Shown: positions 26,640 to 56,275 of the stretch, piece by piece
How positions within the stretch are numbered: position 1 is the stretch's first letter
Layout: each line of letters starts with the position of its first letter
Origin: Escherichia coli
GTDB lineage: Bacteria; Pseudomonadota; Gammaproteobacteria; Enterobacterales; Enterobacteriaceae
Assembly: GCF_036507355.1 (NCBI RefSeq)
Contig: NZ_AP027877.1
Reading direction: 5' to 3' (one strand)
DNA: 64,000 nucleotides
The notes under the pieces: generated by a model
Seen by the model: only the letters and a program-made list of their open reading frames with translations
What the model was told of the DNA's origin: nothing
The model's database searches: none
Position numbers and translations under genes: made by a program

Positions 26640-29276
26640 TTAACGACATTCAGCTGATAGCTGGGTTAATAACTGCTGCTGACTCTCTGGTGGCAGTTGA
26701 TAATTGGCGATACAGTGAGCATTTTCCTCTTCTCCCCATTTCACCTGAACTTTTCCCGCTAGAGGCATTCCGCTGAGGTAAACCTGACCATTATCCGCAA
26801 CAATGCCGCTACTCTGGCTACTCTCTGATGTCACCATCGCCCCAAACGGCAGCGGCTTATTATTGTGGGTTAGCGTCATGAGCAGTTTTATCCCAACGCG
26901 CGCTTTAAACTCTGCTCGCACGATCGCCCCACGAGTGGGAACAACGTTAGCGACCGCGTTATCTAAATCGACGTTATCAGCCAGGGTATTGGTATCCAGC
27001 GCCACTCTGTTTTCCCGATATTCGGTGGCATAAGGCAGCACGGCATAACCGCGCCAGTCGGTACGCACCCCCGTCTGGTTTTCGACTTTTGCATCTTTTG
27101 CGCCAGGCGCTTTAACAAGTACCACCGTATCGTTTAACGGCTGCCCCAGCGTTACACCATTGGCATGAGCCAGTACCCCACCGCTGACTCCGTAATAGAG
27201 CTGCTTAATATCATCGCTATGGCTGTAACCGATATTGGCATTGCCGTAACCACCGCGATAATTCAGCGTGGCGTAGCCTGTACTTCCGCTATTACCATCA
27301 CCTCCCCCGGCATAGCCGGTTTGCACGCAATAGCTGAGGTTGTTGTCTTCCAGCAACGTACCGTATACACCAGCCAGATTGGTCATCCGACCGTTGAGAT
27401 CGTGTGACATGCTGTAGCTGGCACTGGCATGTCGCCACTGAGATTTACTGTCAGAACGCAGCCAGTGGCTGAAAGGAATATTGACGTTAAGCGCTAACAT
27501 CTGATCACGTCCTTTTTGCCAGGCGTTTTTCGTCAGGCTATAGCTGAGCGTCCAGTTGATATCTTCGAACGCAGTATTTAAACCAGCCTGGAATTGCTCA
27601 TCGACATTACTCGTTCCCCAATAAGTTTGATGGCTACCACTCAAATACAGTGTTGATGAGCGCCCGAGTTGCTGAGTAACGGTGAGTTGTAATTTCCCGC
27701 GTTTGTTATAAGCGAGGTTGTAATAGTCGGTGAATTTCGGCTTAACCTGAATAACTCCATCCTGTGTTTCGATGTTGTAGCCATTCATTCGACTGTATGT
27801 TGTATCAGCGAAATTAAAATATCCGCTGGTCGAATAACGGTAACCCACTAACTGAATATTCGTGCCTGACTCATTGAGCGATTTGTTATAGAGAAAACGC
27901 ACCGATTGTCCGTCATGCTGACTGTCATCGGGAAGTGTGGAATTAGCCTGAGTCATATCCACAGACAGAGCGCCCAGTGCCCCCATATTTTTCCCGATAC
28001 CAAAATTAAAAGCACGATAACGATCTGCCAGTTGCGTTCCACCATATATTGTCCAGCCAGCCGGAAGGCCGTGGAGTAATGTACTTTGGAAAAAGCGGGG
28101 TTTTTCCTGTTGCGCATTTCCACTACGGTATTCTCCTGCCATAATGGAATAACGAGTATGCCCTTCACGTTGCAAAAGCGGGACTGACGAATAGGGTACG
28201 GTAAAAATCTGCGTGCTGCCGTCAGCCTCTTTAATCGTTACCTGCAAGTCACCACTATTACCTGCGGCATAGATATCGTTGATGGTAAAAGGCCCCGGCG
28301 GCACCGTACTATTATAAATGTCATACCCATTTTGTTTAATAGTGACCTGTGCAGTACCACGAGCAATACCGTGGATCACCGGGGCAAATCCTCTTTGGCT
28401 ATCGGGTAACATATTGTCATCTGAGGCCAATTGTGCGCCGCGAAAGTTAATACCATCGAAAATATCGCCCTGAGTATAACCATCACCCAGCGTCAGCCGG
28501 GAACGTAACGGTATTATGTCTCGCTCAAGCCAGGTATTGATATGCTGCCATTTATTTTTGCTATTTGATGAACTGTCGCTACTGTTATAACTCCAGCTGG
28601 TATTGTCGCGTAAACGCCACGCACCAATATTTAACCCACTCTGTAGGTTTAAATATGCATAATGGCTGTTACCCCCAATCCGATTCTGTACACTATTTCC
28701 GCTGAAATTATAATTGAGCAATCCGGCATTAATACCGGGATCCCATAACTCAGGAGGAATATAACCACGCGCGCGATTACTCATAAATGCCTGAGGGATC
28801 GTCAGGTTGAGTCGCTGCTGACCAACATCTAAATGCGCAGTAGCGTCCTGGACCATTGTGGTTAATGGCACGCAGGCATCATCCGCCAGCAGATTCATAC
28901 CGGAGACAGAAGCCGTATTCAGCCCCATACTGGCAAGTTGCGCGCGTGTCAGGCAGGGAACAATCCCTTGTTCGCTGTCGCCCGTATTAAATGTGACATC
29001 ACGCGTTGCCATATAACCATTATTCAAATAGATATCGACGCGATACGTCCCTGGCGGTAATTCTTGCCCATTTTCAAAACGCGATAAATCGGCCACAGCC
29101 TGGGGATCATCCGCTAAAAAACGCGGGTTAAAATAGAGTTCGGCAGATGACAAAGGTGCCTGTGCGGCAAAAGCACAGGCGACAACGAGCCGGACAAAAA
29201 AACCAGCCAAACGATGCTTACGAATATGCAAGCATTGTGTGTTTCGCTGGTAAAGTCTTAAATTCAGATATGACAT
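26640..29276 (-). CDS. fimD: Fimbrial usher
   Basis: 878-aa outer-membrane usher ORF. Confidence 0.9.
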   Translation of the reverse strand: MSYLNLRLYQRNTQCLHIRKHRLAGFFVRLVVACAFAAQAPLSSAELYFNPRFLADDPQAVADLSRFENGQELPPGTYRVDIYLNNGYMATRDVTFNTGDSEQGIVPCLTRAQLASMGLNTASVSGMNLLADDACVPLTTMVQDATAHLDVGQQRLNLTIPQAFMSNRARGYIPPELWDPGINAGLLNYNFSGNSVQNRIGGNSHYAYLNLQSGLNIGAWRLRDNTSWSYNSSDSSSNSKNKWQHINTWLERDIIPLRSRLTLGDGYTQGDIFDGINFRGAQLASDDNMLPDSQRGFAPVIHGIARGTAQVTIKQNGYDIYNSTVPPGPFTINDIYAAGNSGDLQVTIKEADGSTQIFTVPYSSVPLLQREGHTRYSIMAGEYRSGNAQQEKPRFFQSTLLHGLPAGWTIYGGTQLADRYRAFNFGIGKNMGALGALSVDMTQANSTLPDDSQHDGQSVRFLYNKSLNESGTNIQLVGYRYSTSGYFNFADTTYSRMNGYNIETQDGVIQVKPKFTDYYNLAYNKRGKLQLTVTQQLGRSSTLYLSGSHQTYWGTSNVDEQFQAGLNTAFEDINWTLSYSLTKNAWQKGRDQMLALNVNIPFSHWLRSDSKSQWRHASASYSMSHDLNGRMTNLAGVYGTLLEDNNLSYCVQTGYAGGGDGNSGSTGYATLNYRGGYGNANIGYSHSDDIKQLYYGVSGGVLAHANGVTLGQPLNDTVVLVKAPGAKDAKVENQTGVRTDWRGYAVLPYATEYRENRVALDTNTLADNVDLDNAVANVVPTRGAIVRAEFKARVGIKLLMTLTHNNKPLPFGAMVTSESSQSSGIVADNGQVYLSGMPLAGKVQVKWGEEENAHCIANYQLPPESQQQLLTQLSAECR

Positions 29277-30708: not shown

Positions 30709-31263
30709 TTATTGATACTGAACCTTGAAGGTCGCATCCGCATTAGCTGCGCCAGGGGTTGCGACACCGGTTGCATAATAACGCGCCTGGAACGGAATGG
30801 TGTTAGTACCGTTATTCAGGGTTGTTTGCTCACTGAATGTCGCACCATCCAGCGTCAGCGCAGCACCCGTTCTGTCCAGGATCTGCACACCAACGTTTGT
30901 TGCACTACCTGCAGCAGAACTCTGCAGAGCCAGTACTTTAGGATGAGCACTGTCAATCGCAGTCCCCAAGAAGGCAACAGCGGCTTTTGTGGCAACACTG
31001 GTATCGCAATCATTCAGCTGAATGTTAAAACCGACAGCAGAGCTGGTTGCTCCAGTCTGCTTCAGACTAGCGGTACGAACCTGGCCCAACTGAACGGTTT
31101 CATCAACAGAGCCTGCATCAACTGCGCAAGCGGCGTTAACAACTTCCCCTTTAAAGTGAACGGTCCCACCATTTACCGTCGTGGGTGTAGTTTCAGCCAG
31201 AGCCGCTGTAGAACTCAGGGACAGAGCCGACAGAACAACAATTGCCAGAGTTTTAATTTTCAT
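30709..31263 (-). CDS. fimA: Type 1 fimbrial major subunit
   Basis: [23 protein letters not shown]...ATFKVQYQ. Confidence 0.9.
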
Positions 31264-31382
31264 ACTGCTTTCCTTTCAAAAAACTATTTCTAAATCGACA
31301 TGGGCAGTCGTTCCGTACACTTTGTTTTGTCAACGAGTTTGACTGCCAACACTGCACAGTTTCCCCCCAAAAGATGAAACAT

Positions 31383-31696
31383 TTGGGGCCATTTTGACTC
31401 ATAGAGGAAAGCATCGCGCACAAACTTTTTCAGTTTATTTGTTGGCTTGATATTCTATTGTTATCTTTATTTATAGATTTTTATATTGCATGAGGTGGTT
31501 TTTGGAGAGAAGAATGAGGAAGTTGCTTCGAGACACAGAAACGTTAGCTTTACATTTAGCGGAGGTGATGTGAAATTAATTTACAAGAGAAATGATTTAC
31601 ATATCAAACAGTTAGATGCTTTTTGTCGTTTTATAATATTTTTATGCTTGAGAAAAAATACGTAACTTATTTATGATATGGACAGTTTTGGCCCCA
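31383..31696. promoter_or_regulatory. fimS: fimS invertible promoter element, 314 bp, bounded by 9-bp inverted repeats TTGGGGCCA / TGGCCCCAA
   Basis: Inverted repeats read at 31383-31391 and 31688-31696; sits between fimE and fimA; contains a TTGAGA-N18-TATGAT promoter-like element on the + strand (31648-31677). Confidence 0.8.
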
Positions 31697-31744
31697 ATTG
31701 TCTTGTATTTATTTGTTTTTTACCTTTACTATCAATAAGTTAAA

Positions 31745-32341
31745 TTAAACCTCTTCTCTTTTTAATTTTTCGTTTATGAGATTATTTCTTTCCCATAATC
31801 CGGCAAAACGAGCAGCATTACTGGTGGTATAACGCACAGTATGGCGAATATTTCGATGCCCGAGATAATCCTGAATTAAACGGGTATCTGCACCACGCTC
31901 CGCCAGTTCATAACCGCAAGCATGCCTTAACATATGAGGATGAGTCTGCGTTACGGTTCCAGCTTCAATACCGGCATCACGAATAATGCGATAGGCCTGC
32001 TGGCGAGAAAGCCGACTCCCGCGGCGAGAAATAAATATGGCGTCGGTCCGGTCAGCGCCTTTCCAGTTAGCACGTTCCAGGGTCCAGCGTTCCACAGCTT
32101 CACGCTCATCAAAACGTAACGGGTGAACGGTAGAAAATCCGTTCTTCAGTCGGCGAATATTTATTCGACCTTCATTAAGGTCAAGATCCTGATAATGCAG
32201 ATCAAGCAGTTCACTAATACGCATCCCATGCCGATATGCCAACAGAATAAGACAATAATCTCTGGCTCCCGTTGCCCCGTAACAAACCGCCTGCATCATG
32301 GCCTGAACTTCTTTACCGGTAAGATAACGACGTTTACTCAC
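31745..32341 (-). CDS. fimE: Fim-switch tyrosine recombinase (ON-to-OFF)
   Basis: 198-aa ORF with a ...HMLRHACGYELAERG...LGHRNIRHTVRYT tyrosine-recombinase C-terminus. Confidence 0.9.
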   Translation of the reverse strand: MSKRRYLTGKEVQAMMQAVCYGATGARDYCLILLAYRHGMRISELLDLHYQDLDLNEGRINIRRLKNGFSTVHPLRFDEREAVERWTLERANWKGADRTDAIFISRRGSRLSRQQAYRIIRDAGIEAGTVTQTHPHMLRHACGYELAERGADTRLIQDYLGHRNIRHTVRYTTSNAARFAGLWERNNLINEKLKREEV

Positions 32342-32818
32342 AATAGTAGTACTCCTAACTGAGATATATTTGAATGAATACCTATAGGAAACCTCAATCG
32401 GTCAAAATTAGCCCAATAGATAAAAAGATAACCACACACGAAGTGATGTGGCTATCAGTCAATTACATTAAATATCATACAAAAATAAAATATCACTGAT
32501 GTGATAACATCTATTTTCATTGATTTGATTCAATATAACAATAGATTGCAGTGGATTAACTTCCAGTTGCTTAAAAAATAAAGGAAAAAGTGCAGAAACA
32601 GGAGAGTTTAAGTGATGTGTAAATTTATGAATGATTTTGTTTATTTATTTTGAAGAACATAAACCATTGTATTTTGTATGGATATGGTTAACTTAATGTT
32701 TATTATGATAATTAAGAATCATACTTACAATAACATCAATTAATAAATGGTTAATCATTTTTGATATATCGTAAGAATAATGTAGTTTTTAACACCATCC
32801 CTGGTATCTCAACTATCT

Positions 32819-33421
32819 CTATAAAACAGCGTGACGCTGTCGTCCTCTGGCTCTATCCCAGATGCCGTAAAAACGCCCTGCATTGCTGGCGGTATACCAG
32901 ACAGTATGACGAATATTGCGATGCCCAAGATAATCCTGGATAAGTCGCGTATCTATTCCCATATTCGCCAAAGCAAAACTACACGAATGGCGTAACATGT
33001 GCGGATGAATCTCCAGTGACAACCCGGCATTACCACCGGAAGTCGAGATAATATGGTAAAACTGTTGCCGAGAAAGCGGATTCCCCTTACGCGATAAAAA
33101 TACCCACTCGCTCTCAGCATGCGGGTACGAAGTACGGATACTCAACCAGTTTTTTAAAGCCTGAACTTCTTTATTCAATAGCGGGTGCGTTGTTGAAAAG
33201 ACTTTTTTTAATCGATGGATATATATACACTTTGCCTTAAGATCAATATCCGAAATCCTCAATCGACAAATTTCACTCGCCCGGAAACCATGAATAAAAC
33301 AAAGCAAAGTCAGACAATAATTACGTGCTGCATGAGGCCCGGTATTTGCTGCTTTAAGGAGTGATTCGATTTCACTATGGGTCAGGAAGTTCCTTTTTTT
33401 GTTATCAGCCTTATTCTTCAT
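32819..33421 (-). CDS. fimB: Fim-switch tyrosine recombinase
   Basis: From MKNKADNKKRNFLTHSEIESLLKAAN; paralogue of fimE. Confidence 0.9.
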   Translation of the reverse strand: MKNKADNKKRNFLTHSEIESLLKAANTGPHAARNYCLTLLCFIHGFRASEICRLRISDIDLKAKCIYIHRLKKVFSTTHPLLNKEVQALKNWLSIRTSYPHAESEWVFLSRKGNPLSRQQFYHIISTSGGNAGLSLEIHPHMLRHSCSFALANMGIDTRLIQDYLGHRNIRHTVWYTASNAGRFYGIWDRARGRQRHAVL

Positions 33422-40804: not shown

Positions 40805-42190
40805 ATGAACGACATCTCTTCTGACGACATCTTCCTGCTAAAACAGCGCCTGGCCGAACAGGAAGCGCTGATCCACGCCCTGCAGGAAAAGCTGAGCAAC
40901 CGGGAGCGCGAAATAGACCATCTGCAGGCGCAGCTGGATAAACTCCGCCGGATGAACTTCGGCAGTCGTTCCGAAAAAGTCTCCCGCCGTATCGCACAAA
41001 TGGAAGCCGATCTGAACCGGCTTCAGAAAGAGAGCGATACGCTGACTGGTAGGGTGTATGACCCGGCAGTACAGCGTCCGTTGCGTCAGACCCGCACCCG
41101 TAAGCCGTTCCCTGAATCACTACCCCGTGACGAAAAGCGACTGTTGCCTGCGGCGCCGTGCTGCCCGAACTGCGGCGGTTCACTGAGCTATCTGGGCGAG
41201 GATACCGCCGAACAGCTGGAGTTGATGCGTAGCGCCTTCCGGGTTATCCGGACGGTACGGGAAAAACATGCCTGTACTCAGTGCGATGCCATCGTGCAGG
41301 CACCTGCACCTTCGCGGCCCATCGAGCGGGGTATCGCCGGACCGGGGCTGCTGGCCCGCGTGCTGACCTCGAAGTATGCAGAGCACACCCCGCTGTATTG
41401 CCAGTCAGAAATATACGGCCGGCAAGGTGTGGAGCTGAGCCGTTCACTGCTGTCGGGCTGGGTGGATGCATGCTGCCGGCTGCTGTCTCCGCTGGAAGAG
41501 GCGCTTCATGGCTATGTCATGACTGACGGCAAACTCCATGCCGATGATACCCCGGTCCAGGTACTGCTGCCGGGTAATAAGAAGACGAAGACCGGGCGGT
41601 TGTGGGCGTATGTTCGTGATGACCGCAATGCCGGGTCAGCGTTGGCACCTGCAGTGTGGTTCGCTTACAGCCCGGACAGAAAAGGCATCCATCCGCAGAC
41701 TCATCTTGCTTGCTTCAGCGGTGTGCTGCAAGCGGATGCGTACGCCGGGTTCAACGAGCTGTATCGCAATGGTGGGATAACGGAAGCTGCCTGCTGGGCT
41801 CATGCCCGCCGAAAGATCCACGATGTGCACGTCCGCATCCCGTCAGCACTGACGGAAGAAGCCCTAGAGCAGATCGGTCAGTTGTACGCCATAGAGGCGG
41901 ATATAAGGGGAATGCCGGCAGAGCAGCGGCTTGCTGAACGTCAGCGAAAAACGAAACCGCTGTTGAAATCCCTGGAAAGCTGGTTGCGTGAAAAGATGAA
42001 GACCCTGTTCTTCGGCTCTGGCCATGGTGGTGAGCGGGGAGCGCTACTGTACAGCCTGATCGGGACGTGCAAACTGAATGACGTGGATCCAGAAAGCTAC
42101 CTTCGCCATGTGCCTGGCGTCATAGCAGACTGGCCGGTCAACCGGGTCAGCGAACTGCTTCCGTGGCGCATAGCACTGCCAGCTGAATAA
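40805..42190 (+). CDS. IS66-family transposase (orfC)
   Basis: 461-aa ORF with an N-terminal coiled coil and a CxxC...CxxC zinc-ribbon region. Confidence 0.75.
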   Translation: MNDISSDDIFLLKQRLAEQEALIHALQEKLSNREREIDHLQAQLDKLRRMNFGSRSEKVSRRIAQMEADLNRLQKESDTLTGRVYDPAVQRPLRQTRTRKPFPESLPRDEKRLLPAAPCCPNCGGSLSYLGEDTAEQLELMRSAFRVIRTVREKHACTQCDAIVQAPAPSRPIERGIAGPGLLARVLTSKYAEHTPLYCQSEIYGRQGVELSRSLLSGWVDACCRLLSPLEEALHGYVMTDGKLHADDTPVQVLLPGNKKTKTGRLWAYVRDDRNAGSALAPAVWFAYSPDRKGIHPQTHLACFSGVLQADAYAGFNELYRNGGITEAACWAHARRKIHDVHVRIPSALTEEALEQIGQLYAIEADIRGMPAEQRLAERQRKTKPLLKSLESWLREKMKTLFFGSGHGGERGALLYSLIGTCKLNDVDPESYLRHVPGVIADWPVNRVSELLPWRIALPAE

Positions 42191-42428: not shown

Positions 42429-43787
42429 TTATTTCAACGCTTCCGGCAGCGTCACAATCCACAGTTCACTGTCAGACTCCGGTTTCTCCAGTGGCTTCAC
42501 TCTGAGGGTCGTTTCAACCTGCTTGTCGTCAAGCGTCAGCTTTCCTTCCGCGTTCACCCGATAATCCTTGAATGTCTTGCCCTCGACCGGATGTTGCATC
42601 GCCACCTTCACGCCAAAGTCGTTATCGTTCGCCACCGCCAGCGTTTTGCTGTCGATCAGCGCCAACCCTTCAGCCTTCTCCTGCTGCCAGCCCAAGGAGC
42701 GCAGATCAACAACCTGCGTTTTCTGCGCAAGGGTAATGCCGCGCTGTGACAGGGTTTTCTCATCATCAAACTCCGGATACTCACCCGGCTTGTCGAAGCC
42801 TGACAGGTCGCTCGCCTTATTGAGATCGACCTCGTAAATCAGGTTACGCATTCTGTTGTTTTTATCTCTTCCCTGTTCGATCAGCAGGATGTGCTGGTTA
42901 TCGAGCGCCACGATGTCTCCGATTTTAGCGTCGCTGTTTTTGCTGTAGGCCGCGCTGTCGATAGGATAACCGTACATCGCGGTTTTTCCGCTTGCCGGAT
43001 CGAAGCTCACCAGACGCGTAAACAGCGCCTTTTTCTTGCTCTTAGCGTCGATATCCAGCGTACTTTGCACGGCGACAATAATACGCCCGTCCGGCATACG
43101 GGTGAGGCCTTCAAAGCCGCGGTTCGCCTGACGCCATTTGAGGATATTTGGCAAACCGCCCGCAATCGCTTTTTCCCCTTCCGCCGCCTGCGGACCGTGG
43201 ATTGCCAGGATTTTCCCTTTACTGTCGATGTTAATCAGGAACGGGCCATACTCATCGCACAGCCAGTAACCTCCTTTACCATCCGGAGTGATCCCTTCCG
43301 TATCCAGCCCGCGATTATCCCCCTTCAGTCTATGTAACGTGTCGCTGAAGGCCACTTCATTGGTGGAGCCAATCACGTCGCTTGCCAGCGGCAGACCGTT
43401 GATCGCGCCTTTATCGTCATGCAGAGGACGGGGATCGATGGCCTCCGCTTTGCCGTTTTGTACACGAATCGTCATCAGCAGCGGCGCGAAATCTGGCGTA
43501 ACGAAAATTTTAGTTTCGTTTTTCCCCTCTTTCGGTGAATCCGCGTTCGGACCGCGATCGGTAATGGTTGCGAATGTCAGGGCATCGCCCTGTTTACCGG
43601 TGAACAGCAGGCCAGAACCTATCCCAACCGGAAGGCCGTTCGGGAATGCACTGGCAAATGCGCCGGCGTAGTTCACGTGCGTGCCTTCTGGAAAACTGAC
43701 GACATAGCGCTCAGCCGTAGGTTGTGCCGCCAGGGCAGAGAAAGAGAGCGTACAACCGATTAGCACGGGAATAATTTTTCTTTTCAT
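42429..43787 (-). CDS. Secreted beta-propeller protein, phytase-like esterase family (tentative)
   Basis: Signal peptide MKRKIIPVLIGCTLSFSALAA; repeated blades with TEGI / FEGL / AEGL and DEYGP motifs. Confidence 0.45.
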   Translation of the reverse strand: MKRKIIPVLIGCTLSFSALAAQPTAERYVVSFPEGTHVNYAGAFASAFPNGLPVGIGSGLLFTGKQGDALTFATITDRGPNADSPKEGKNETKIFVTPDFAPLLMTIRVQNGKAEAIDPRPLHDDKGAINGLPLASDVIGSTNEVAFSDTLHRLKGDNRGLDTEGITPDGKGGYWLCDEYGPFLINIDSKGKILAIHGPQAAEGEKAIAGGLPNILKWRQANRGFEGLTRMPDGRIIVAVQSTLDIDAKSKKKALFTRLVSFDPASGKTAMYGYPIDSAAYSKNSDAKIGDIVALDNQHILLIEQGRDKNNRMRNLIYEVDLNKASDLSGFDKPGEYPEFDDEKTLSQRGITLAQKTQVVDLRSLGWQQEKAEGLALIDSKTLAVANDNDFGVKVAMQHPVEGKTFKDYRVNAEGKLTLDDKQVETTLRVKPLEKPESDSELWIVTLPEALK

Positions 43788-44071
43788 ATTGTTAGCATCC
43801 ATAAAGTGAAGATCACACTACACCATAAAGAAGAAACGAGTCAGGAAAATGACATCGAATGGCAACATGCGCGGGCCTGAGGCCAAAGAAATGTAAAACA
43901 CTGTTGTTATTTGTAACAACGGAAACATTTACGGAAATTATTTGTCTTTCTTCGTGATCAAAAATGCTGTGTCTTGTTGGATTGGAGTGATGAGGGCTGC
44001 GTTTAGGAAACGCCCTATATTGTACGGTTGCATTATCGCGGTAGGGGTAATGCACGTGTCAGTATGATGAG

Positions 44072-45065: not shown

Positions 45066-45911
45066 TTATTCATTTAAAGATTCAAGAAATGTCCAGCCTT
45101 TATGAGTAACATAATACATTTGTCCTTTTGCCCCTCTTTCAATCACAAAATCAAAGGATAACAGTTCGTTAAGTGCGCCCTCCCAACGGGCTACCTCTCT
45201 AGCCGAACTTCCACCAAAGGATTGATTTCCCGCTTGAATATCCGTGCCACCTAAATGCCTTATCACATAAATTGTTCCGCTATCATCGACACATGCCAAT
45301 TTCAGCAAACTGAGTGCATCGGCGGACAAATTACTTTCTGGCAAAGATTGACTTGTATTCGCATCAGGAGAATTGTTAATGGTAGATATAAGAGAAGACA
45401 AATAAGGGCTACTAGAAATAATTATCGAAAGTTGCCTACGGACTTTGTCTTTGAAATCAGATAAGTCATTAAAAGACTCTATCAATCCCTTTTGCATGCA
45501 CTCAATTTTGAACAATTTAAGAGACTCATATTGTTCTCTATCAAGGCTTTCAGGGGCAACAGGCTTTGAGGAAAAGTAAATCATTGCCGGTTTTCCCGCA
45601 TTCAAATGACGGTGAATTTCTTCGACTGTTCCGCTGGCCTCGTTCCCAGTCGGTGAGCCTAGACGAGTCCAAAACACACCGATTAATAAATCACAATCTA
45701 CTAATAATCTTTGATTAATCAACTCCTGAGGCCTAACTCCTAATTCGGGTGATGTATGAGTTTCCCATCCAATTGGTGTCAACATTACTTTTGAACGAGC
45801 TGAATTTATATCATTCCACTCATGGATCATTTCACGAATGACTTGTCTCTCTTCAGCGACATCACCAGGAGAAGCAATCATTACAGGGATAACAGTTGCT
45901 GTGTAAGCCAT
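45066..45911 (-). CDS. Hypothetical protein with DUF4062-like N-terminal domain and an uncharacterised C-terminal domain
   Basis: N-terminus VMIASPGDVAEERQVIREMIHEW ... DCDLLIGVFWTRLGSP ... SGTVEEIHRHLNAGKPAMIYF resembles the DUF4062 pattern as I recall it; GGAGAG RBS 6 nt upstream; visibly AT-rich. Confidence 0.45.
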   Translation of the reverse strand: MAYTATVIPVMIASPGDVAEERQVIREMIHEWNDINSARSKVMLTPIGWETHTSPELGVRPQELINQRLLVDCDLLIGVFWTRLGSPTGNEASGTVEEIHRHLNAGKPAMIYFSSKPVAPESLDREQYESLKLFKIECMQKGLIESFNDLSDFKDKVRRQLSIIISSSPYLSSLISTINNSPDANTSQSLPESNLSADALSLLKLACVDDSGTIYVIRHLGGTDIQAGNQSFGGSSAREVARWEGALNELLSFDFVIERGAKGQMYYVTHKGWTFLESLNE

Positions 45912-45924
45912 AAACTCTCCATAT

Positions 45925-46485
45925 TCAATCGGTAATAGCTGCTACAGTCGCTCTTGAAACGCCATATTGACGCGCTAACGCACTGATACTCAAACCGCTA
46001 TTCTTTTTCTCTAAAATCTCTCTACGGGCTTCTGACGCGATTTTAGGAGGTCTGCCCAATTTCTTACCTTCGGCTTTTGCTCGTGATAGTCCCGCCTGAG
46101 TGCGCTCAATCAGCAGATCACGCTCCATCTCCGCAACCGCGGCGAGCATAGATAATAGCAACTTCCCAGCGGCAGAAGTGAGATCTGTGTTACCAAGCTG
46201 GTGGACAAGAACCTTGATATTACGGTCAGCCAGCGCCCTTACCGTTTGCAGGACGTCAATCGCATCACGCCCCAGACGATCAAGCTTCGCTACCACCAAC
46301 GTTTCACCATCGCGGATTTTATTGAGCATTTCAGAAAATGCTTTACGTTGCATTGCCGGAACCTTCCCGCTAACAACATCGGCAAACCAGTAATCAATTT
46401 GCCACCCAGCCTGCCCAAGCTCCAGCCGTTGGTTCTCAGTATCCTGCTGCGATGTCGAAACACGTCCGTAGCCAAAAGTTGCCAT
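45925..46485 (-). CDS. Small serine recombinase (resolvase/invertase family), about 186 aa
   Basis: From MATFGYGRVSTSQQDTENQ (catalytic Ser region) with a C-terminal helix-turn-helix (LSISALARQYGVSRATV); GGGGAG RBS upstream of the ATG at 46485. The track ORF carries a 23-codon extension. Confidence 0.8.
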   Translation of the reverse strand: MATFGYGRVSTSQQDTENQRLELGQAGWQIDYWFADVVSGKVPAMQRKAFSEMLNKIRDGETLVVAKLDRLGRDAIDVLQTVRALADRNIKVLVHQLGNTDLTSAAGKLLLSMLAAVAEMERDLLIERTQAGLSRAKAEGKKLGRPPKIASEARREILEKKNSGLSISALARQYGVSRATVAAITD

Positions 46486-46507
46486 TGTTATCTCCCCATC
46501 TGACCCC

Positions 46508-46605
46508 TGCCAGAAAACGAGGCCAACATTAGGATGGCCTGCCAGAAAAGCCAAGGCTATTTTTCCAACAGTGTGAAAGCGTGCGATTGGGAGGTGCCAG
46601 AAAAC
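46508..46605. promoter_or_regulatory. Three direct copies of TGCCAGAAAA(C/G) upstream of the recombinase gene, plus a short GGCCA...TGGCC palindrome; candidate recombinase binding or regulatory site
   Basis: Copies read at 46508, 46540 and 46595; the GGCCAACATTAGGATGGCC palindrome lies between the first two. Confidence 0.35.
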
Positions 46606-48888: not shown

Positions 48889-48973
48889 TGGTGCCGAAGG
48901 CCGGACTCGAACCGGCACGTATTTCTACGGTTGATTTTGAATCAACTGCGTCTACCGATTTCGCCACTTCGGC
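48889..48973 (-). tRNA. leuX: tRNA-Leu (leuX type, CAA anticodon)
   Basis: Reverse complement reads GCCGAAGTGGCGAAATCGGTAGACGCAGTTGATTCAAAATCAACCGTAGAAATACGTGCCGGTTCGAGTCCGGCCTTCGGCACCA, a cloverleaf with a long variable arm and CCA end. Confidence 0.9.
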
Positions 48974-54426: not shown

Positions 54427-55941
<1,515 letters not shown>

Positions 55942-55944
55942 TTG

Positions 55945-56275
<331 letters not shown>

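Follow-up and report, generated by a model that had tools for sequence, protein, structure and literature searches.

The type 1 fimbriae of E. coli are governed by fimS, a well-known invertible promoter switch that is bounded by the 9-bp repeat TTGGGGCCA and has been described as 314 bp in size (PMC9820224). Two tyrosine recombinases act on it: FimB inverts the element in both directions, while FimE works from ON to OFF only and is dominant (literature, including PMC2647292). Both share the catalytic tetrad R-H-R-Y, the positions of which are given in PMC9820224, and the recombination complex is shaped by IHF, Lrp, Fis and H-NS. Besides a promoter, fimS holds a Rho-dependent terminator, which shortens and destabilises the fimE transcript in the OFF orientation only (PMC2647292). 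In the O157:H7 clade a 16-bp deletion locks the switch OFF, and EHEC DNA was measured as 100% OFF (PMC6765310). The ipuS/IpuA-IpuB and FimX/HbiF systems of UPEC and the fimS of Klebsiella follow the same logic, i.e. a short invertible promoter segment, short inverted repeats and small tyrosine recombinases (PMC6458436).

The element analyzed in this study lies in a 64-kb stretch of DNA, referred to below as the window, in which the minus-strand genes are ordered fimB-fimE-fimS-fimA-fimI-fimC-fimD (Table 1). Unlike the ipuS, FimX/HbiF and Klebsiella systems, which differ in locus, in repeats (7 bp in ipuS) and in target genes, it is fimS proper, and as such is already known and ordinary. The 9-mer TTGGGGCCA is present in exactly two copies in the window, one on the plus strand and one as the reverse complement. 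The distance between the two arms is 297 nt, and the element including both repeats is 315 bp long. The first-pass annotation had correctly recognized the pair of 9-bp inverted repeats, but had described an element of 314 bp (31383-31696), which is one base short at its end.

At least two matches to a 9-mer of this kind were also obtained in 16 of 100 shuffles, hence the repeat pair alone is weak evidence. The identification of fimS is nevertheless solid, since it is based on homology (304 of 315 aligned columns identical to MG1655) and on the position between fimE and fimA, and not on the repeat or promoter matches. The fimE-fimS-fimA region was matched in 4,725 of 5,426 complete E. coli genomes, and the matching regions are annotated as fimE and fimA. 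Every testable sequence-level feature that defines fimS was found in the window.

Comparison with the switch of K-12 MG1655 (NC_000913.3, between fimE b4313 and fimA b4314) showed that the two are alike in locus, 9-bp repeats and reference orientation, and identical in the TTGAGA and TATGAT hexamers discussed below and in the BstUI, HinfI and SnaBI landmarks. The MG1655 element is 314 bp long, whereas that of the window has one extra A and 10 substitutions. The fimA products of the two strains differ by 17 amino acids, including a 2-residue insertion. In the RefSeq annotation of MG1655 neither fimS nor a promoter feature is annotated.

The 315th base is the extra A, which adjoins the fimE-proximal repeat (TTGGGGCCAAAACTG in the window versus TTGGGGCCAAACTG in K-12). 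At least eight assemblies made independently (L004-L011) share it, which marks it as a natural allele. The same recurrence rules out a homopolymer sequencing error as the source of the 315-bp length.

The A/T run concerned (31685-31688), which separates the repeat from the promoter end and lies at the inner recombinase half-site, is variable among strains. It is 2 nt long in E2528-C1 (313-bp element), 3 nt in K-12 and UTI89 (314 bp) and 4 nt in the window and its relatives (315 bp), while one relative (L012) carries an element of 316 bp.

Table 1. Features located in the 64-kb window, with the evidence or context for each.
Feature	Position	Strand	Basis or context
fimA, major type 1 fimbrial subunit, 184 aa	30709-31263	-	homologues annotated fimA; K-12 protein identity
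Region corresponding to the 135-bp Fis/Lrp EMSA probe (primers BSREVBIO + BSFORBIO)	31364-31498		primer mapping; PMC9993118
fimS invertible element, 315-bp allele, OFF as assembled (probable)	31383-31697	-	repeats; MG1655 identity; PSJ-16 reverse complement
IRR, fimA-proximal 9-bp repeat	31383-31391		repeat search
HinfI site GACTC, 5 bp inside the fimA-side repeat here	31396-31400		orientation assay of PMC6727828
BstUI site CGCG, unique, promoter-distal fimS end, adjoining the fimA-side repeat here	31415-31418		basis of published orientation assay
PfimA candidate: -35 TTGAGA (31648-31653), 18-nt spacer, -10 TATGAT (31672-31677)	31648-31677	+	scan score 10/12
IRL, fimE-proximal 9-bp repeat (TTGGGGCCA when read from fimE to fimA)	31689-31697		repeat sequence matches PMC9820224
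fimE, ON-to-OFF tyrosine recombinase, intact, 198 aa, Q88L + A173T vs K-12	31745-32341	-	K-12 comparison
fimB, both-direction tyrosine recombinase, intact, 200 aa, private G74V + G148S	32819-33421	-	K-12 comparison
IS66-family transposase	40805-42190		36.7-48.9 kb interval
Phytase-like protein	42429-43802		36.7-48.9 kb interval
DUF4062 protein	45066-45911		36.7-48.9 kb interval
Serine resolvase/invertase	45925-46554		36.7-48.9 kb interval
Ysr276	54988-55182	-	Rfam match above gathering score, 174.7 bits
naRNA4, two tandem copies	56016-56091, 56114-56189	-	Rfam matches above gathering score, 82 and 73 bits

A promoter scan of region 31200-31900 returned TTGAGA-N18-TATGAT as the top sigma-70 match (10/12). 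This site, located 11 bp from the fimE-proximal repeat, faces fimE and points away from fimA. It is the site that the first-pass annotation had reported on the plus strand at 31648-31677, beside the same repeat, and the placement of fimA by that annotation on the minus strand at lower coordinates was confirmed as well. The fimA gene starts approximately 120 bp beyond the fimA-side repeat and has no linked promoter.

When the AT-rich fimS was shuffled with its composition kept, 23% of the shuffles contained a match of at least 10/12, so the hexamers alone are not significant, and the number of promoter-like sites in the scan was at chance level (3 found versus 2.3 expected). Neither hexamer varies between the window, MG1655, UTI89 and the O157-type strain. 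We take them to be the PfimA mapped by Olsen & Klemm in 1994; the work of Hinde (2005) and Kelly (2006) reportedly covers the fimS terminator and mutants of the promoter. A full-text literature search with the hexamers and fimA yielded unrelated papers only. The Fis, LRP-2 and BstUI sites occupy one end of fimS, which has been termed promoter-distal (PMC9993118), and the TTGAGA-N18-TATGAT site lies at the other. On the strength of indirect statements in that paper and in PMC2647292, TTGAGA-N18-TATGAT is treated here as a candidate fimA promoter. The promoter/terminator scan, which is blind to Rho-dependent terminators, found no intrinsic terminator, a result that fits a terminator of the Rho-dependent type.

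Judging from the published roles of the recombinases and of the terminator, which we presume to hold for the window, the assembled arrangement may be read as follows. The promoter-bearing end abuts fimE, so transcription from the promoter would head for the 3′ end of fimE, leaving fimAICDFGH without a promoter. FimB and FimE would recombine within the 9-bp repeats and thereby flip the segment, and in the OFF orientation transcription of fimE would run into the Rho-dependent terminator. The assembly would show the orientation prevailing in the sequenced culture and, fimE being intact, an OFF consensus would be the expected default rather than a peculiarity of the strain.

The orientation of the element was determined with anchors chosen independently of the promoter assignment. 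In the assay of the Dorman laboratory, the product of primers OL4/OL20 is cut with BstUI, and the published fragments are 539+187 bp (OFF) and 433+293 bp (ON) (PMC9993118). Simulated in silico on the window, this assay gave 540+188 bp, i.e. the OFF pattern, and the control genomes gave 540+188 bp (MG1655), 539+188 bp (UTI89) and 293+433 bp (E2528-C1). For the assay of the Dozois laboratory, with primers CMD1258/CMD1259 and HinfI, the published fragments are 411+239 bp (OFF) and 128+522 bp (ON) (PMC6727828). Again the OFF pattern was obtained for the window (412+245 bp), with 412+239 bp for MG1655 and 128+527 bp for E2528-C1. Both genomes used as inverted controls (E2528-C1 and PSJ-16) produced ON patterns in silico.

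Three further anchors gave the same answer. The UTI89 reference genome is described as fimS OFF (PMC6458436), and the fimS of the window is collinear with it. The window is also collinear with an O157-type genome bearing the 16-bp deletion that locks the switch OFF, and it has the same orientation as MG1655 NC_000913.3. Finally, the published probe for the promoter-distal end is 135 bp long (size and primers from PMC9993118); one of its primers maps inside this end and the other in the fimA-side flank, and in the window they face each other at a distance of 135 bp. Since this probe can be amplified only if the promoter-distal end abuts the fimA flank, this is evidently the arrangement in the window. 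All five anchors (BstUI, HinfI, UTI89, O157-type and the 135-bp probe) thus indicate OFF.

[quoted passage not shown] The phase-OFF reading of the first-pass annotation is therefore supported by both restriction assays and by the UTI89 and O157-type collinearity; the comparison with reference ON and OFF sequences, which that annotation had put forward as a check, came out as OFF.

One source disagrees. In a preprint describing a three-primer fimS orientation PCR (10.1101/840991), the product of primers 1+2 (884 bp) is labelled “phase ON”; the orientation of the MG1655 reference yields this product, and the window gives one of 890 bp. Taken at face value, the label would mean that the window is in phase ON and that the functional fimA promoter is located at the BstUI/HinfI end and reads towards fimA. 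A weak promoter-like site on the minus strand (31607-31578; 9/12) does face fimA, but it belongs to the set of sites found at chance level. Moreover, the assays of two independent laboratories give OFF for the orientation of the window, and the published OFF state of UTI89 agrees with the natural control provided by the locked-OFF O157-type (EHEC) switch, which shares the orientation of the window and, in silico, its PCR and restriction pattern. The end abutting fimA is the one that PMC9993118 calls promoter-distal, and the orientation of the window is shared by 95% of assemblies, as would fit an OFF dominance driven by FimE. An ON state of the assembled switch is therefore extremely improbable. 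Within the preprint, the Results and Methods name different primer pairs for the OFF band, and the stated size of 394 bp differs from the 412-413 bp computed. Given four concordant anchors against it, two of which are tied to phenotype, we judge that the ON/OFF labels of the preprint appear to be swapped.

The frequency of the OFF orientation was examined with an 851-bp probe spanning the switch, which was required to match collinearly over at least 80% of its length in the 5,426 complete E. coli genomes. Collinearity with the orientation of the window was observed in 4,458 genomes and collinearity with a probe inverted in silico in 251, i.e. approximately 95% of complete assemblies are OFF and 5% ON. 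As OFF is the norm in assemblies, it does not set this genome apart.

The best complete-genome match to the probe was strain BEC1-S17-ESBL-09 (L004; 99.9% over 851 bp). The fimD gene of this strain is a frameshifted pseudogene (L004 22675-25300 versus 26640-29276 in the window), while that of the window is an intact ORF of 878 aa.

Since invertible segments can be heterogeneous in sequenced DNA (PMC6458436), the assembled orientation might in principle have been created by reference-guided scaffolding or polishing, or by an arbitrary choice from a roughly 50:50 mixture of reads. We consider such an artefact very unlikely. The element is only 315 bp long and has unique flanks, so that single reads span it, and its orientation is exactly collinear, with clean junctions at the 9-bp repeats. 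In addition, all of L005-L012, independent short-read assemblies from this lineage, are OFF, which fits a real OFF majority.

The genome of PSJ-16 (NZ_AP027632.1), assembled ON, contains the exact reverse complement of the 315-bp element of the window within identical flanks. The allele is thus base-for-base the same in the two strains, but in PSJ-16 it is inverted, with the promoter facing fimA, and is accompanied by a wild-type FimB (WP_000790583.1) and a K-12-type FimE. The existence of both orientations shows that the 315-bp allele flips at its repeats in nature.

The locked-OFF switches of O157:H7 type (e.g. strain 472, NZ_CP018245.1) resemble that of the window in orientation, repeats and promoter hexamers. 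They carry the 16-bp deletion, whereas the window does not, and its DNA substrate is intact. Consequently, any lock in this strain would have to lie in the recombinase and not in the DNA.

The recombinases of the window were compared with those of K-12 and with related proteins. FimB has two substitutions, G74V (codon 33200-33202) and G148S (codon 32978-32980). In an alignment of 124 representatives of the FimB family (36-55% identity), column 74, two residues past the near-invariant K72, contains G in 83 and S in 39 sequences, and V in none. Column 148, four residues past the catalytic R144 of the H141-x-x-R144-H145 box, contains G in 121 of the 124 and S once. The columns of FimB H141, R144, H145 and Y171 (FimE numbering) are near-invariant in this alignment, and none of the substitutions in FimB or FimE of the window affects a tetrad residue.

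The FimE substitutions Q88L and A173T were considered and rejected as meaningful: both family columns are variable, and the allele, the exact protein of which was found on 8 contigs, is common to a small lineage.

The exact FimB of the window was found on a single contig among approximately 15 billion proteins, and lineage relatives sharing the FimE allele carry either wild-type FimB or the F12L variant. The best match to the fimB-fimE region among complete genomes was 99.3%. In the 16.25 kb that the window has in common with its closest full-length relative, just three differences are window-private, namely 33201 (G74V), 32980 (G148S) and 33937; the last of these lies upstream of fimB, at 516 bp from its start codon.

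These observations suggest, tentatively, that the switch of this strain could be genetically biased or locked OFF by an impaired FimB acting beside a normal FimE, a reading that we regard as possible though unlikely. In its favor, FimB is the one recombinase encoded in the window that can switch fimS ON, no third FimB-like or Fim-type recombinase gene being present there (the leuX-proximal island included), and its two private substitutions affect near-invariant positions of the catalytic domain. On the other side, conservation speaks only indirectly to the activity of FimB, one family member has S at column 148, and recombinases of the FimX, HbiF or IpuA type could lie elsewhere in the genome, beyond the window. 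The clustering of the private SNPs was noticed post hoc; for three SNPs to fall within 958 bp in a 16-kb stretch, p is roughly 0.01. The orientation itself gives this reading no support, because OFF is the default anyway and would be expected in approximately 95% of genomes whatever the status of FimB. OFF-to-ON switching may be impaired in this strain, but it is rather doubtful that the switch is locked or strongly biased OFF through a recombinase defect with a sound DNA substrate.

In several relatives the fimB region is interrupted. The alignment of three of them (L007, L008 and L016) to the window stops at 33236, inside fimB, with IS1 (InsA) adjoining, and contigs of two others (L009 and L017) end at window positions 32712-32716, between fimB and fimE. 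In this lineage fimB seems to have been disrupted repeatedly.

The tRNA-Leu(CAA) gene leuX (48889-48973, minus strand) is located approximately 15 kb from fimB. In K-12 the leuX-fimB interval is presumably much larger than in the window. The region between 36.7 and 48.9 kb holds nanC/nanM/nanS-like genes, together with the four further genes listed for this interval in Table 1.

The assembled orientation of the switch captures the prevailing state of the sequenced culture at one moment, and does not predict the ability to produce type 1 fimbriae. The practical yield of the analysis is the base rate among complete E. coli genomes (approximately 95% OFF and 5% ON) and a quick in silico test with published primers for annotators who label fimS orientation. 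If the impairment of FimB were real, it would point to recent selection against switching type 1 fimbriae ON, and would have a counterpart in the fimB IS insertions of related lineage isolates and of ST131. If confirmed, the two substitutions would represent a natural point-mutant route to the silencing of type 1 fimbriae, of modest weight, beside the 16-bp deletion of O157 and the IS insertions in fimB.
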